A DNA stretch of 54,143 bases from positions 1-54,143 of the forward strand of contig DASTFE010000176.1 in assembly GCA_035708905.1 (NCBI GenBank), given 5' to 3'. The notes under the pieces are model-generated. The model searched no databases, was not told the origin of the DNA, and saw nothing but the letters and a program-made list of their open reading frames with translations. Of the stretch, positions 35,892 to 41,831 are shown one piece after another (position 1 is the stretch's first letter; each line of letters starts with the position of its first letter). The DNA is from Acidimicrobiales bacterium (GTDB taxonomy: Bacteria > Actinomycetota > Acidimicrobiia > Acidimicrobiales > VFJN01). Both the position numbers and the translations under genes were made by a program.

Positions 35892-36275
35892 ATGCGGGTG
35901 ATGACGAACATCGACCAGCCCGAGGCAGCGACCGTCGCGACGCTCGTGACCCGTGCGGCGTCGGATGCGCTGGCCTGGCATCCCCTCGAGCCCTTCGACC
36001 GCGTCGACTACAAGCTGCTGTGGCGGTCGGGCAAGTCGGTCGCCGGGATCATGCGCGTCGGGCCCGGCGGCTCGGTGAGCCCGCACACCCACCAGCGCAC
36101 GCACCACCACCTGTGGGTGCTCGAGGGCACGGCCGAGATGCTGGGCGAGCGCGTCGGCCCCGGCACGTACCTGCACGTGCCGGCCGGCGTCGAGCACGGC
36201 ATCAGCGATCCCGGCGACGAGGGCTGCACCTTCCTCTACCTCTACCTGCGCGAGCCGGACGCCGCGGCCACGTAG
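35892..36275 (+). CDS. Cupin-domain protein (ChrR-like cupin).
   Basis: GGSVSPHTHQRTHHHLWVLEGTAEM....GTYLHVPAGVEHG. ATG at 35892 (35901 is an alternative start). Confidence 0.7.
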   Translation: MRVMTNIDQPEAATVATLVTRAASDALAWHPLEPFDRVDYKLLWRSGKSVAGIMRVGPGGSVSPHTHQRTHHHLWVLEGTAEMLGERVGPGTYLHVPAGVEHGISDPGDEGCTFLYLYLREPDAAAT

Positions 36276-36496
36276 GCGACGAACCCGTCGACCGACGCCA
36301 CCTGCGGGTAGTCCCGCTCGGGGACCTCGATGCCGGTCTCGTCGTAGAGCGCGCTCACCAGGTTGAGGAAGTCCATCGAGTCGAGCTCGGCCTCTTCCTG
36401 CAGCGGCGCCGCCGGGTCGAGGCCGTCGAGGTCGACCTCGGGGGCGATGCCGTGGAGCAGCCGGGCGAGCAGGGTGCGGGTCTCGGCGGCGTTCAC
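36242..36496 (-). CDS. Stand-alone acyl carrier protein (phosphopantetheine attachment site).
   Basis: 84 aa. ...PLQEEAELDSMDFLNLVSALYDETGIEVPE... (DSM serine motif). GTG at 36496 overlaps the E2 stop (GTGA). Its 3' end overlaps the convergent cupin gene by 34 nt. Confidence 0.7.
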   Translation of the reverse strand: MNAAETRTLLARLLHGIAPEVDLDGLDPAAPLQEEAELDSMDFLNLVSALYDETGIEVPERDYPQVASVDGFVAYVAAASGSRR

Positions 36497-37722
36497 AGGT
36501 CCTCCGGATGCTGGAGCAGGCGGTCGATGGCGTTCAGCAGGCGGGCGCCGATCATGCCGTCCGTGGCCCGGTGGTCGGCGGCCAGCGTGGCCCGTACGGT
36601 GGGGCGCACGCCGAGCATGCCGCCGCAGGCCCAGGGCCGCTCGGCCACCCGCCCGAAGCCGACCAGCGCCACCTGGGGCGGGTAGATGACCCCGTGCACC
36701 TCGTCGACCCCCTGGTCGCCCAGGTTGGTGACGGTGAGGGTGGGGTCGGACATCTCGGAGCTGCGCAGCCGCCCGGCCCGGGCCCGGCCGACCAGGTCGC
36801 GCAGGGCGGCCATCAACTCGTCGAGCGTGAGCCGGTCGGCGTCGTGGATGGCGGGGGCGATCAGGCCGCCGCCCCGCAACGACACGGCGACGCCCAGGTG
36901 GACCGCCGGCGACGGGCGGTACGAGCCGTCCCAGAAGCCGTTGAGCGCAGGGACCTCGCGGGCCGCGAGCGCCGTCGCCTTGAGCAGCAGCGCACCGGGG
37001 AGCAGGCGCTCGGACACCGACCGCTGCTCGTTGGTCTCGGCGAGCCACGCCAGCGCGGTCGCCATGTCGATCGTCGTGGCCAGGTGGTAGTGGGGGATCT
37101 CCCGCGCCGAGCGGGCCATGAGCGCGCCGATGGCGCGGCGCATCGCCGCCTGGCGGTCCTCGCGGCGGCCCGGCGGGCCGGGCACGGCGGCCTCCGGCGC
37201 GGCCGGCGCCGGTACCACCGTGGCCCGGTCGAGGTCGGCGGCGACCACCGCGCCGCCCGGCCCCGAGCCGGCGACGGCGGCGAGGTCGATGCCCCGCTCG
37301 GCCGCACGGCGCCGAGCCAGCGGCGACGCCCGGAGGTGGGCGGCGACCGGCGCGACGGTGGGCGCGGGCTCGGCCGTGCCGGGCCGGGCCGCCGGCTTCG
37401 CCTTGGCCTTGCGGGGCCGGGCCGCCCGCTTGCGGCCGGCTGCCACGGCTCGGGTCGGTCGTGCGGCCGCGGCCGGCGCGGCGGGCGCGACGGCCGCGAT
37501 GCGGGCGAGGGGGGCGCCGACGGGCGCCTCGGTGCCCGGCTCGACGAGCAGGGCCTCGACGACGCCGTCCTCGAACACCTCGACCTCGATGGTGGACTTC
37601 TCGGTGTCGACCACGGCGACGATGTCGCCCCGGTGGACGGTGTCACCCGGCTGTACCCGCCACTCGAGCAGCGTGCCGGCCTCCATGTCGGCGCCCAGCG
37701 ACGGCATCACGAACTCGCCCAC
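36493..37722 (-). CDS. Dihydrolipoamide acyltransferase (E2) of a 2-oxoacid/acetoin dehydrogenase complex.
   Basis: Lipoyl domain [18 protein letters not shown]...[12 protein letters not shown]. Subunit-binding domain [16 protein letters not shown]...GSGPGG. Catalytic motif [10 protein letters not shown]. Confidence 0.9.
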
Positions 37723-37724
37723 GG

Positions 37725-38696: not shown

Positions 38697-39664
38697 GTCG
38701 TCACCTCGCTCGTGACGAACCGGGTCAGGTCCTCGACCGGCTCGAGCGTGCCCGCTCGGGCGCCGGCCACCGCCGCGTCAAGCTCGGCGGCCACCTCGTC
38801 CTCCATGGCCGCCAGGTCGTCGTCGCCGAGCGCGCCGTCCGCGCGGAGGCGCTCGGTCAGCAGGGCGATCGGGTCGCGCCGGCGCCACAGCTCCACCTCG
38901 TCCTTGGACCGGTAGCGCTCGGGGTCGTACATCGAGTGGGCGCGGAACCGGTAGGTGCGCAGCTCGAGGAACACCGGGCCGCCGCCGTCGCGGACCTGCA
39001 CCACCGCCCGGCGGGCGGCGTCGGCCACGGCCAGCACGTCCATGCCGTCGACGGGCCAGGCGGGCACGCCGTAGCCGGTGGCCCGCATGGCCAGGTCGGT
39101 GACCGCCTCGCTGCGTGCCAGGGCCGTGCCCATGGCGTAGAGGTTGTTCTCGCAGCAGAACAGCACGGGCAGGTGCCACAGCGCGGCCAGGTTCATGGTC
39201 TCGTGGAACTCGCCCTCGGCCACCGCGCCCTCGCCGAAGAAGCAGGCGGTGACCTGCCGGCGGCCCTGCATGGCGTCGGCCAGCGCCAGGCCCGCCGCCA
39301 GGGGGATGCCGCCGCCGACGATGGCGTTGCCGCCGTAGAAGCGGCTGGACCGGTCGAACAGGTGCATCGAGCCGCCCCGGCCGCGGCTGGTGCCCTCGAC
39401 CTTGCCGAGCATCTCGGCCATGATCGCCTCGGCCGGGACGCCCCGGGCCAGCGCGTGGCCGTGGTCGCGGTAGGTCGCCACCACGGCGTCCTCGGGGGCG
39501 AGGGCCCCCATCACCCCGACCGCGACGGCCTCCTCGCCGATGTACAGGTGGAGGAAGCCGCGGATCTCGGTGGCGCTGTACAGCTCGACGCAGCGCTCCT
39601 CGAACCGGCGGATGCGCAGCATCTCGCGCAGCAGGTGCAGCCCCTCGGCGCGCTCGACGGTCAC
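38693..39664 (-). CDS. 2-oxoacid (Aco/PDH-type) dehydrogenase E1 alpha subunit, TPP-dependent.
   Basis: [11 protein letters not shown]....[13 protein letters not shown]; GGSMH. TPP motif [39 protein letters not shown]; note GEG where GDG is usual. GTG at 39664 overlaps the upstream stop. Confidence 0.9.
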
Positions 39665-41466
39665 CGGGTCACCTCCAGCGTCGACAGGTCGCCCTCGGGC
39701 AGCCCGAGCTCGCGCGCCTTGAGCAGGCGCCGCAGGATCTTGCCGCTCTTGGTCTTGGGCAGGTGCTGGTCGAAGGCGACCTCGCGCGGGGCCACGGCTG
39801 CGCCCAGCTTCCTGCGGGCGAACCCGACCAGGTCGAGCCGCAGGTCCTCGCTCGGCTCGTGGCCCGCGCCGAGCGTCACGAAGGCCTTGACCACCTCGCC
39901 CGCCACGGGGTCCGGGACGCCGATGACGCCTGCCTCCACCACCGCCGGGTGCTCCATGAGCACGCTCTCGACCTCGAAGGGCCCGATCAGGTGGCCGGCC
40001 GACTTGATGACGTCGTCGGCCCGCCCGACGAACCACAGCCAGCCGTCCTCGTCGCGCCGGGCGACGTCACCGGTCATGTACCAGCCGCCGGCGAAGCACG
40101 CGGCGTAGCGCGCGTCCTCGTGGAGGTAGCCCCGGAACATCGACGGCCAGCCGGGCCGGAGCGCCAGCTCGCCGTCGACCCCCGGCCTGTCGATCACCTG
40201 CACCCGACCGTCGCGGACGGCGGCCCGGCCGTCCTCGCCCCGGGCCAGCAGCGCGACCTCGACGCCGGGGAGGGGTCGGCCCATCGACCCGGGCCGGATG
40301 TCGCAGCCGGCCAGGTTGGCGATCATGATCCCGCCGGTCTCGGTCTGCCACCAGTTGTCGTGCACCGGCAGCCCGAAGGCCTCCTGCCCCCACACGACGA
40401 CCTCGGGGTTGAGCGGCTCACCCACGCTGGCCACGAAGCGCAGGCGGCTCAGGTCGTGCTCGCGGGCGACGGCGGCGCCGGCCCGCATCAGCATGCGCAG
40501 GGCGGTCGGCGCCGTGTACCACACGGTGACCCGCTGCTCGGCCAGCACCCGGTACCACCGCTCGGCCTCGAACTCGGCCTCGTCGACGACGCAGGTCACC
40601 CCGTGGGCCAGGGGGGCGATCACGCCGTAGGACATGCCCGTCACCCACCCCGGGTCGGCCGTGCACCAGAACACGTCGTCGTCGTGCAGGTCGAGGGCCG
40701 AGATGCCCGTGGCGTGGTGGGCCACGACGGCGTCGTGCACGTGGACGGCGCCCTTGGGGGTGCCGGTGGTGCCACTGGTGAAGTGCAGCAACGCCATGTC
40801 GCCCGGGTCGGTGGGCGGGATCGTGAAGCGGTCGGGGGCGGCGGCCACGAGCCGGCCGAAGTCGAGGGTGCCCTCCACGTCGGTCGGGTGGCCGTCCGCG
40901 CCGACGAGGATCACGTGCTCGAGGCGGGGGACCTGGCGGCGGATGGCGGCGACCTTGCGCCGGTAGAGCGCCGGGGTGGTGACGAGCACCCGGCCGTCGC
41001 CCAGCTCGAGGCGCTGGCGGATCGGCTCGGGCCCGAAGGCCGAGAACAGCGGGCACACCACGGCCCCGCGCTTGAGGGTGCCCAGCACGGTCACGTACAG
41101 CTCGGGCACCCGGCCGAGCAGGGTGAAGACCCGGTCGCCGCGGTCGATGCCCAGCTCCACCAGCACGTTGGCGAACCGGTTGGTGGCGGCGGCCAGCTCG
41201 GCGTACGTGGCCTGGTCGACGCGGCCGTCCTTGCGCAGCCAGCGGACGGCCACCCGGTCACGCCGCGGGCCGGCGGCGTGGCGGTCGACGGCCTCGTGGG
41301 CGATGTTCAGGCCCCGGCCGTCCGGCAGCCCGTCGACGCCTTCGCGGGCGCCCTCCCAGGTGAAGGCCGCGCAGGCGGCCTCGTAGTCGACCACGTTGGG
41401 CGTCACGCCGCCCGGCCAGGCGCCCTTGCGGATGACGGGCAAGGTCTCGGTGGCCACGGCGGTCAC
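39661..41466 (-). CDS. AMP-forming acetyl/acyl-CoA synthetase (short AcsA-like form).
   Basis: [62 protein letters not shown] and a C-terminal [11 protein letters not shown] (the acetylatable-lysine motif). GTG at 41466 overlaps the upstream stop. Confidence 0.9.
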
Positions 41467-41831
41467 CCGGTGGCCGCCGCCCGGTCGGCCTCCTCGCTGA
41501 ACTCGAGGTAGGCCTCCCAGGCCCGCGGCGCGTACACGCTGGCCGTGCCGCCGCCGAGCAGCAGCGCGACGCCCAGCATCTCGGCGACCTCGCCCGGCGT
41601 GGCCCCGGCCCGGGCGGCGGCCTTGGCGTGGTAGGCGATGCACCCGTCGCACCTGGTGGCCACCGAGATGGCCACCGCCGCGGCCTCCTTGAGCCGGGTG
41701 GGCACCTCGCCCTCGGCCATGGCCGCCTGGTGGAGCGCCAGGAACCCGGACCAGGCGTCGGGGATGGAGTGGCGCAGCAGGCGGGTCGGCTCGCGCAGGT
41801 CCTGCAGGGTCTCGTGGTGACGGTGCGACAT
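41463..41831 (-). CDS. Carboxymuconolactone decarboxylase-family / AhpD-like protein with a CxxC motif.
   Basis: 122 aa. ...[26 protein letters not shown]... is an AhpD-core signature. It is the first gene of the six-gene operon. Confidence 0.85.

Follow-up and report, generated by a model that had tools for sequence, protein, structure and literature searches.

A widespread cassette of an acetate ligase, pyruvate dehydrogenase-type E1 and E2 and an acyl carrier protein, preceded by low-oxygen regulator boxes: a putative pyruvate/acetate-to-acetyl node

The pyruvate dehydrogenase (PDH) complexes with a heterotetrameric E1, of the mitochondrial, alphaproteobacterial, and Gram-positive kind, are classically aerobic enzymes, and their dihydrolipoamide dehydrogenase (E3) is commonly shared and encoded away from the other complex genes. 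The acsA/acuABC genes of Bacillus subtilis encode an acetyl-CoA synthetase (ACS) of the AMP-forming type, a divergently transcribed GNAT-family acetyltransferase that controls this enzyme, and a CBS-domain protein of the AcuB type. A third kind of system, represented by QncN/QncL/QncM (quinocarcin) and SclQ1-4 (scleric acid), co-encodes a thiamine pyrophosphate (TPP) enzyme, a lipoyl-acyltransferase, and a stand-alone acyl carrier protein (ACP); it is described as drawing on a ketose phosphate, delivers a glycolyl unit, and lies in nonribosomal peptide synthetase (NRPS) clusters, with a phosphopantetheinyl transferase (PPTase) in the scl cluster. These Qnc and Scl systems establish that the catalytic domain of a lipoyl-E2 can use ACP instead of CoA (PMC6335953). 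Here we describe an operon at positions 36242 to 41831 of a 54,143-nucleotide stretch of DNA from an Acidimicrobiales bacterium (GenBank assembly GCA_035708905.1, contig DASTFE010000176.1, positions 1 to 54,143; the window hereafter), which joins parts akin to all three: an ACS, PDH-type E1 alpha and E1 beta subunits, a lipoyl-E2, and an ACP, headed by a small AhpD-like protein. The best explanation of the whole, to which we give a probability of about one half, is a low-oxygen, dormancy-type operon that would run a node leading from pyruvate or acetate to an acetyl thioester.

The six genes are consecutive on the minus strand of the window, which has a G+C content of 75%, and were called from their third-position GC content (GC3) of 0.97 to 0.99. 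The first, lineage-specific gene (41463 to 41831) encodes the AhpD-like protein of the CMD type, 122 residues long with the CxxC motif RCDGCIAYH; its start is the ATG at 41831, preceded by a GGGAGGG ribosome-binding site. It is followed by the genes for ACS, an AcsA-type AMP-forming acetate ligase of 601 residues (39661 to 41466); E1 alpha, PDH-type and TPP-binding, of 323 residues (38693 to 39664); E1 beta, also PDH-type and of 323 residues (37725 to 38696); E2, of 409 residues with lipoyl, peripheral subunit-binding, and catalytic domains (36493 to 37722); and ACP, of 84 residues with the invariant motifs LDSMDFLN and PE(R/A)DYP (36242 to 36496). Adjoining genes overlap by GTGA at 41463 to 41466, 39661 to 39664, and 36493 to 36496, and by ATGA at 38693 to 38696, and E1 beta and E2 are separated by 2 nt. 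A first-pass annotation, made from the letters of the window, had described this tight coupling, and the sequence matches its account of overlaps and gap exactly; profile searches upheld each of its domain assignments for the six proteins. Each part belongs to a known family, and no published description of the combination itself was found. The annotation had not recognized it as a described system, and targeted full-text literature searches gave no match either. The low-oxygen lxa locus of Burkholderia was considered as a known home of the cassette and dropped, as the lxa paper does not mention this gene combination.

How widely the arrangement occurs was determined from the ACP outward. A profile built from non-actinobacterial members of the ACP family identified at least 7,961 clusters at 90% identity. 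Scanning of GTDB species representatives gave at least 558 confirmed matches, and the best 80 loci, each at the species level, were kept, searched by tblastn with the six window proteins, and their flanking open reading frames (ORFs) clustered. The complete block ACS-E1 alpha-E1 beta-E2-ACP, in identical order and on one strand, is present in 53 of the 80 loci. The remainder comprise short contigs in which E2 adjoins ACP (15 loci), an ACS-ACP pair only (five or six), E1-E2-ACP without ACS (two), ACP alone (two), and incomplete or odd arrangements (two, L059 and L066 in our numbering of the loci). Recurrence of this order with tight junctions at 53 of the 80 independent species-level loci goes far past what chance would give; of 55 loci, 42 have E2 and ACP genes that overlap by 4 nt, and every junction measured is below 100 nt. 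Relatives have median identities of 55 to 77% to the window proteins, and the divergences of the five core proteins co-vary among loci (Spearman coefficients of 0.43 to 0.74), which argues that the block is inherited as a unit. Only these five genes are universal among the clustered neighbors, and they constitute the core. The earlier proposal that the genes form one conserved unit is therefore borne out for the five-gene core, although not for the AhpD-like gene that had been included at its head, which accompanies the cassette at only 12 of the 80 loci.

The 53 complete blocks come from Actinomycetota, Proteobacteria, Binatia, Nitrospira, Holophagales, and Pirellulales, so that six or more phyla or classes are represented. 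Carriers include Acidimicrobiia, Solirubrobacterales, and other Actinomycetota, Acetobacteraceae, Burkholderiales (Hydrogenophaga and Curvibacter), and Gammaproteobacteria, and further Binatia, Nitrospira, "Deltaproteobacteria," Holophagales, Pirellulales, and also Rokubacteria. The cassette is thus widespread, mostly in uncultured soil lineages: a defined metabolic module that has spread as a unit and is carried by thousands of environmental genomes. Two carriers are cultured, both of them Acetobacteraceae (Rhodopila globiformis DSM 161 and Limobrevibacterium gyesilva), and offer an experimental entry point.

The regulatory sequences in front of the cassette fall into two types. In the window, a DosR-like box that matches the consensus, GGGACCTTCGCCCC, is located about 50 nt upstream of the AhpD-like gene (41883 to 41896, minus strand), and a variant, GGGACGTACGGCCC, follows at 41918 to 41931 (plus strand) in the promoter region that the operon shares with a divergent acetyltransferase gene. 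The 14-mer at 41883 to 41896 recurs identically at 35850 to 35863 (plus strand), upstream of a cupin gene, and box-like sites are present at 47562 to 47577, between divergent dienelactone hydrolase-like and OsmC genes, and, with one mismatch, at 46147 to 46163, between divergent ATPase and CBS-pair genes. DosR-like boxes, whose core of GGGAC-N4-G(N)CCC frequently has TG after it, hence lie in promoter regions across the gene island around the operon. A refined version of the motif has four matches in the window, all in promoter regions of the island, against 0.12 expected, a ratio inflated by the derivation of the pattern from the same data. The first-pass annotation had pointed to a DosR-like box ahead of the operon, and footprinting of the relatives indicates that it is real: of 67 loci, 17, all actinobacterial, have such boxes upstream of the first cassette gene, 19 boxes in total, where the background in the same loci (0.03 per 500 bp) would give about 2. 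They stand 70 to 235 nt from that gene, with one at 357 nt, and the box in L049 is a perfect GGGACCTAAGTCCC. Proteobacterial loci carry FNR/FixK boxes instead, perfect or near-perfect copies of TTGAT-N4-ATCAA positioned 80 to 210 nt upstream of ACS; 14 were found in 12 loci (L044, L045, L053, L056, L058, L060, L063, L065, L067, L068, L072, and L084), against about 1.3 expected.

Thus, the boxes match the GGGAC-N4-GTCCC core of DosR/DevR regulons or the TTGAT-N4-ATCAA element of FNR/FixK regulons, and two unrelated types of oxygen-responsive regulator appear to precede the same cassette, which argues that it is a low-oxygen module. Judged from these motifs, the pairing of two regulator types with one cassette is the strongest functional clue that we have, and independent wiring to DosR-type and FNR/FixK-type control speaks for a selectable function in survival when oxygen is limiting. 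The recurrent neighbors are likewise of the dormancy type: universal stress proteins (USPs), Hsp20, CBS-pair proteins, P-type ATPases, and PRT-DLH fusions, together with Rv2632c-like, DUF1918, and pyridoxamine oxidase-like proteins and Zn-ADH. Several of these resemble members of the DosR regulon, which includes USPs, Hsp20 (alpha-crystallin), CBS-pair proteins, a CtpF-like ATPase, PRT-DLH, and Rv2632c-like proteins. To our knowledge the cassette is not part of the DosR regulon of Mycobacterium tuberculosis; it would be a new and widespread member of DosR/FNR-type regulons. Known dormancy regulons consist mostly of proteins without assigned chemistry, and a defined module of this kind gives a lead on how obligately aerobic soil bacteria survive anoxia. 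Taking boxes and encoded enzymes together, we consider it probable that the cassette acts between pyruvate or acetate and an acetyl group under oxygen limitation.

The E1 and E2 subunits resemble those of PDH complexes with a heterotetrameric E1. E1 alpha scores 441 against TIGR03182 (cut-off, 394) and matches human PDH E1 alpha, the somatic mitochondrial form, with an E value of 2e-74; E1 beta scores 410 against PRK09212 (cut-off, 321) and contains Transket_pyr and Transketolase_C domains. E2 consists of PF00364, PF02817, and PF00198 domains, and its closest solved chains are deposited as the acetyltransferase E2 of a PDH complex (8x03, E = 1e-61). The lipoyl lysine and the motifs REIPHY, TxTxLG, and DHRxxDG are conserved in 56 orthologs, in agreement with the earlier description of a complete E2. 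The annotation had also noted that the PDH-type E1 alpha has GEG where GDG is usual. Both type and motif are real; GEG was ruled out as a functional signature, however, because orthologs carry either form, as expected of a neutral Asp/Glu exchange. The operon departs from the PDH complex in that its E2 scores below every NCBIfam equivalog cut-off, in that it has an ACS and an ACP of its own, and in its position behind low-oxygen regulator boxes. It further has no E3 gene in the window, as first noted in the annotation: the redox-disulfide motif of Lpd occurs in none of the six frames and a Pyr_redox domain in no called ORF, nor does an E3 gene recur among the neighbors in the 80 loci.

ACS was identified as an acetate-CoA ligase by NF003313, with 898.6 bits against a cut-off of 729. 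Its closest solved relative is a 572-residue acetyl-CoA synthetase (PDB 9g79, E = 4e-163), which we take to be AcsA of B. subtilis from its length and from a paper on AcuA and AcsA, as the entry itself names no organism. The tryptophan of the acetate pocket (WWQTETG) and the catalytic lysine (SGK) are kept in all 53 ACS orthologs of the cassette. Arg526 (Salmonella enterica numbering), by contrast, in the A8 motif GHRLG, is replaced by leucine (GHLIG) in 53 of 53 orthologs across phyla, whereas the same position is arginine in the five best solved homologs. The equivalent arginine contacts the adenylate phosphate and stabilizes the thioester-forming conformation (PMC10455477). In AcsMt of Methanothermobacter, replacement of this residue, Arg528, by alanine left the enzyme unsaturable for CoA, and Gln and Lys variants had kcat values reduced 130- to 326-fold (PMC10455477). 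The cassette ACS also lacks eight residues of the CoA-binding loop relative to the S. enterica enzyme, a segment that 9g79 is without as well. Judging from these residues, the second half-reaction of the cassette ACS is altered, and a natural, invariant Arg526Leu enzyme provides a probe of direction and thiol specificity in acetyl-CoA synthetases. As a means of deciding between CoA and ACP, the CoA-contacting residues gave a mixed answer, with the equivalent of Arg526 lost and that of Arg584, which in S. enterica binds the 3'-phosphate of CoA, kept in all orthologs. The Arg191 loop proved uninformative as a discriminator, being missing from the whole AcsA subfamily.

A divergent gene on the plus strand (41934 to 42995, start codon uncertain) encodes a putative Pat-type lysine acetyltransferase that the first-pass annotation had missed. 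Its label of "AMP-ligase" for the operon enzyme was correct as to the AMP-forming chemistry and can be refined to a relative of acetyl-CoA synthetase paired with this acetyltransferase. By sequence, the GNAT protein matches PDB entries 3f8k, 4nxy, 4ava, and 9it0, and its sole NCBIfam match, Pat, falls below the cut-off of that model; the best matches to its predicted fold are Rv0998, PatZ, and the Streptomyces lividans PAT-ACS complex 4u5y. Homologs were detected by tblastn in 20 of the 80 loci, mostly divergent and directly upstream, and loci that hold only ACS and ACP are among them. The pairing resembles acsA/acuABC in the proximity of ACS to 9g79, the acetate pocket and the catalytic, acetylated lysine, the divergent GNAT gene, and the CBS-domain proteins, which in relatives lie beside the GNAT protein or are fused to it. 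It differs in an acetyltransferase of the Pat rather than the AcuA type, in the Arg526Leu replacement, in the operon with E1, E2, and ACP, and in a C-terminal domain with four cysteines. This alpha/beta domain of about 130 residues contains the pattern CxGP-x4-CP-x6-CPL ... VCVE, with C231, C239, and C247 invariant and C284 nearly so. The protein family comprises at least 735 clusters, has no Pfam model over its C-terminal half, and includes members of 466 to 469 residues that add a CBS pair. In a whole-protein fold search, the GNAT half dominated the matches and none assigned the four-cysteine domain, a possible sensor of the metal, Fe-S, or redox type.

The last ORF is a canonical ACP by profile, serine motif, and predicted fold. 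It scores 31.2 bits against PF00550 (gathering score, 20.8), residues D39, S40, and M41 are invariant in alignments of 40 and 15 sequences, and its AlphaFold2 model (pLDDT, 92.8) superimposes on solved ACPs with TM values of 0.7 to 0.82. The earlier identification of an ACP with a DSM motif is thus upheld; the ORF passes the ACP profile and fold tests and directly follows E2 in relatives, so that neither of the grounds on which that identification was to be abandoned applies. The protein is strongly acidic, with a median net charge of about -11, and is distinct from the housekeeping AcpP, reaching 25 to 29 bits against cut-offs of 66 to 71 (TIGR00517 and PRK00982); no curated NCBIfam model scores either ACP or E2 above its cut-off. 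It is the only conserved nonenzyme of the cassette, is coupled to E2, and is retained with ACS alone or with E1/E2 alone. A role as octanoyl donor for lipoylation of E2 was rejected, since the tryptophan pocket of the ACS is acetate-specific, neither LipB nor LipA is linked, and some loci have an ACS-ACP pair without E2. In a Rokubacteria metagenome-assembled genome (L089:10001-10701), the start of a USP gene overlaps the ACP stop codon, giving the order ACS-E1 alpha-E1 beta-E2-ACP-USP. A 173-residue ACP-USP fusion in another locus (P0145, L086:10001-10522) was discounted as a Rosetta-stone link; it is probably a frameshift artifact, the long-read contig having many fragmented gene calls.

From these components a route can be proposed. 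E1 alpha and E1 beta would decarboxylate pyruvate and reductively acetylate the lipoyl arm of E2, which would hand the acetyl group to a thiol acceptor, and ACS would interconvert acetate and ATP with the same acetyl thioester, AMP, and PPi. Holo-ACP would serve E2 and ACS as a dedicated phosphopantetheine acceptor or shuttle, in the form of acetyl-S-ACP, replacing free CoA or acting beside it. Dihydrolipoyl-E2 would be re-oxidized by an E3 encoded elsewhere, as suggested by retention of the subunit-binding domain of E2, with a possible contribution in the Acidimicrobiales lineage from the CxxC AhpD-like protein. The Pat-type acetyltransferase would gate ACS activity, and DosR-like boxes, or FNR/FixK boxes in Proteobacteria, would drive transcription. 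We infer pyruvate as a substrate from the PDH-type E1 and from linkage to PEP synthase (PpsA; see below), and acetate from the acetate pocket of ACS. A pool of acetyl-S-ACP shared by E2 and ACS is the most economical assumption, because ACP persists with either enzyme, because QncL/QncM and SclQ provide a precedent for acylation of ACP by a lipoyl-E2, and because ligases of the ANL superfamily commonly load carrier proteins. We propose tentatively that E2 and ACS use the ACP to carry the acetyl unit, either from one to the other or on behalf of each; if ACP does accept acetyl groups, the cassette would hold the first pairing of a 2-oxoacid dehydrogenase of central metabolism with an Acs that operates through a carrier protein instead of CoA. 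The flux might channel acetyl units from pyruvate or acetate into storage polymers or lipids as electron sinks, an option suggested by PhaC, PTA, and ADH among the neighbors, or it might yield ATP, with PpsA and ACS reversed from AMP.

Several observations weigh against this low-oxygen, ACP-linked scheme. Both kinds of box, DosR and FNR, were recognized by their match to a consensus, and no DosR-type (REC-LuxR) regulator is encoded in the window, although one lies beside the cassette in L001. Neither a PPTase nor a consumer of acetyl-ACP is conserved near the cassette, and no PPTase domain was found among the called ORFs of the window. Carrier protein-loading ligases of the ANL superfamily such as DltA and the A domains of NRPSs keep the arginine at A8, so the Arg-to-Leu change is no known signature of ACP use. 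ACS retains the Arg584 equivalent and scores above the cut-off of the equivalog model for acetate-CoA ligases, both of which argue for continued use of CoA as a substrate. E2 shows no recognizable departure from CoA-using E2s, and some of the nearest fold neighbors of the ACP are carrier proteins with the role of structural subunits, in complex I and, for AcpM, with MmpL5 and Emb.

The last of these points also favor a hypoxia-specific PDH isoenzyme accompanied by an AcsA, both working on free CoA, in which the ACP would serve the E2 core or ACS as a structural or regulatory subunit, or else would feed an unlinked pathway such as storage-lipid synthesis. ACS, E1 alpha, and E1 beta all exceed curated equivalog or subfamily cut-offs, the enzymes are nearest, among solved structures, to genuine PDH components and to an acetyl-CoA synthetase, and the E2 motifs are canonical. 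Such an arrangement does not readily account for the invariant serine of the ACP and its translational coupling to E2, for its persistence with ACS alone and with E1/E2 alone, or for its distance from AcpP, and the invariant Arg526Leu would cripple a canonical CoA-dependent Acs. We therefore regard the CoA-only arrangement, the main rival, as somewhat unlikely, and the scheme in which ACP takes part as the somewhat better account.

In the ATP-yielding direction, PpsA and ACS would both run backwards, from PEP through pyruvate and the thioester to acetate, with ACP in place of CoA; PpsA would make ATP out of AMP and Pi, and ACS out of AMP and PPi. In 13 loci, a gene for PpsA (pyruvate, water dikinase; 788 against a cut-off of 740 for TIGR01418) is inserted into the operon or adjoins it. 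This gene stands between the AhpD-like gene and ACS in L009, L011, L016, and L028, flanks ACS or ACP in L012, L041, L081, and L085, and takes the place of ACS in L026 (4644 to 6935), where the order is AhpD-like-PpsA-E1 alpha-E1 beta-E2-ACP. PpsA and ACS are both AMP-linked enzymes, and the hypoxia and dormancy context suits a fermentative route. A precedent exists in Acs1 of Syntrophus aciditrophicus, which is AMP-forming, runs toward ATP with a bias that stems from its CoA-binding loop, and serves an energy-limited lifestyle (PMC13404658); the cassette ACS shares an altered CoA-binding region, with eight loop residues missing in addition to Arg526Leu. Acs1 belongs to another Acs subfamily, however, has no ACP, E1, or E2 partner, and has described determinants, G196 and T197 (PMC13404658), other than the changes seen in the cassette ACS, and 9g79, deposited as an acetyl-CoA synthetase, is without the same loop segment. 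The support for the fermentative route is purely contextual; several proteobacterial islands encode PTA, which would make a reversed ACS redundant there, and the reducing equivalents would still need a sink. Such a route is unlikely. Its most explicit form, a CoA-independent, ACP-tethered substrate-level phosphorylation in oxygen-starved, nongrowing cells, in which reversed PpsA would give pyruvate and ATP, E1/E2 acetyl-ACP, and the Arg526Leu AcsA acetate and ATP, is more doubtful still; if true, many soil bacteria would remake ATP from AMP in hypoxic dormancy and leave the CoA pool untouched.

The AhpD-like protein, a CMD-fold CxxC protein whose gene accompanies that of a lipoyl-E2, invites comparison with the AhpC/AhpD/DlaT/Lpd antioxidant relay of M. 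tuberculosis. Its fold and CxxC motif, assigned in the first-pass annotation, are confirmed by PF02627 (63 bits), TIGR00778, the core motif E-x11-C-x-x-C-x3-H, and a best solved relative, the 121-residue Lpg0406 of Legionella (PDB 5dik, E = 9e-20). The annotation had accordingly offered a lipoamide-linked peroxide or redox relay, in which pyruvate-reduced dihydrolipoyl-E2 would reduce the CxxC of the AhpD-like protein and this a peroxidase. In the window this gene is coupled to the operon in translation, and it heads the operon in 12 related loci, all of the Acidimicrobiales type, adjoining ACS in eight and lying about 2.3 kb upstream in four, with PpsA between. An OsmC gene is located 6 kb away, and proteins of the OsmC/Ohr family are lipoyl-dependent peroxidases. 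The AhpD-like gene is, however, missing from 68 of the 80 loci, including all those outside the Acidimicrobiales type, and was rejected as a core component. A relay would explain neither ACS nor ACP, no AhpC domain is found among the called ORFs of the window and no Lpd gene lies nearby, and the protein is of a short, single-domain type (about 120 residues, like 5dik), unlike the architecture of M. tuberculosis AhpD. As the system of the operon the relay is improbable; it would be at most a lineage-specific addition in a minority of carriers. The OsmC gene (47696 to 48061, plus strand) and the dienelactone hydrolase-like gene (46700 to 47515, minus strand) belong to the same island as the operon, and OsmC and the AhpD-like protein could link lipoyl-E2 to peroxide defense in this lineage.

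A secondary metabolite module of the QncN/L/M or SclQ1-4 kind, delivering a TPP-derived two-carbon unit onto ACP for an NRPS or polyketide synthase (PKS), has the same list of parts, an E1-like protein, a lipoyl-E2-like protein, and a stand-alone ACP (PMC6335953), and the analogy drawn in the annotation to the quinocarcin and naphthyridinomycin pathways survives as the principle of transfer from lipoyl-E2 to ACP, but such a role was rejected on gene context and is very improbable, since the recurrent neighbors of the 80 loci (the ten commonest clusters having been inspected by sequence) included no conspicuous PKS, NRPS, or PPTase cluster, E1 is of the PDH rather than the split-transketolase type, an acetate ligase is the only other conserved enzyme, and the very large distribution and oxygen-linked regulation place the cassette in central metabolism and hypoxia.

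The remaining genes of the island complete the dormancy-type flank. On one side of the operon are a CBS-pair protein (33560 to 33994, plus strand), two tandem-USP proteins (34035 to 34919, minus strand, and 35003 to 35806, plus strand), and the cupin gene, with Cupin_2 and ChrR cupin domains, which runs from a probable ATG at 35892 to 36275 (plus strand), convergent with the ACP gene. The two genes overlap at their 3' ends by 34 nt (36242 to 36275), where a simple terminator scan was negative. Scanning of the operon for sigma-70 promoters and intrinsic terminators found none, and is uninformative at this GC content; an Rfam scan of the window returned no RNA families. On the other side, the flank from 42937 to 48061 encodes Hsp20, a P-type cation ATPase (43464 to 46082, minus strand), a CBS-pair protein, and the dienelactone hydrolase-like and OsmC proteins. 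The neighbors in Rhodopila are Hsp20, dodecin, PPK2, MaoC-PTA, and PhaC. Elsewhere in the window, a GC3-based call at 23742 to 25537 (about 1.8 kb) has no convincing gene on the expected strand, and the ORF at 23465 to 24778 is probably spurious. An unrelated sulfur-handling cluster (3367 to 8555, plus strand) encodes a thioredoxin, a CsoR-like metal-sensitive repressor, a rhodanese-YgaP membrane protein, a persulfide dioxygenase-like metallo-beta-lactamase with two rhodanese domains, a SulP-STAS transporter, and a putative carbonic anhydrase.

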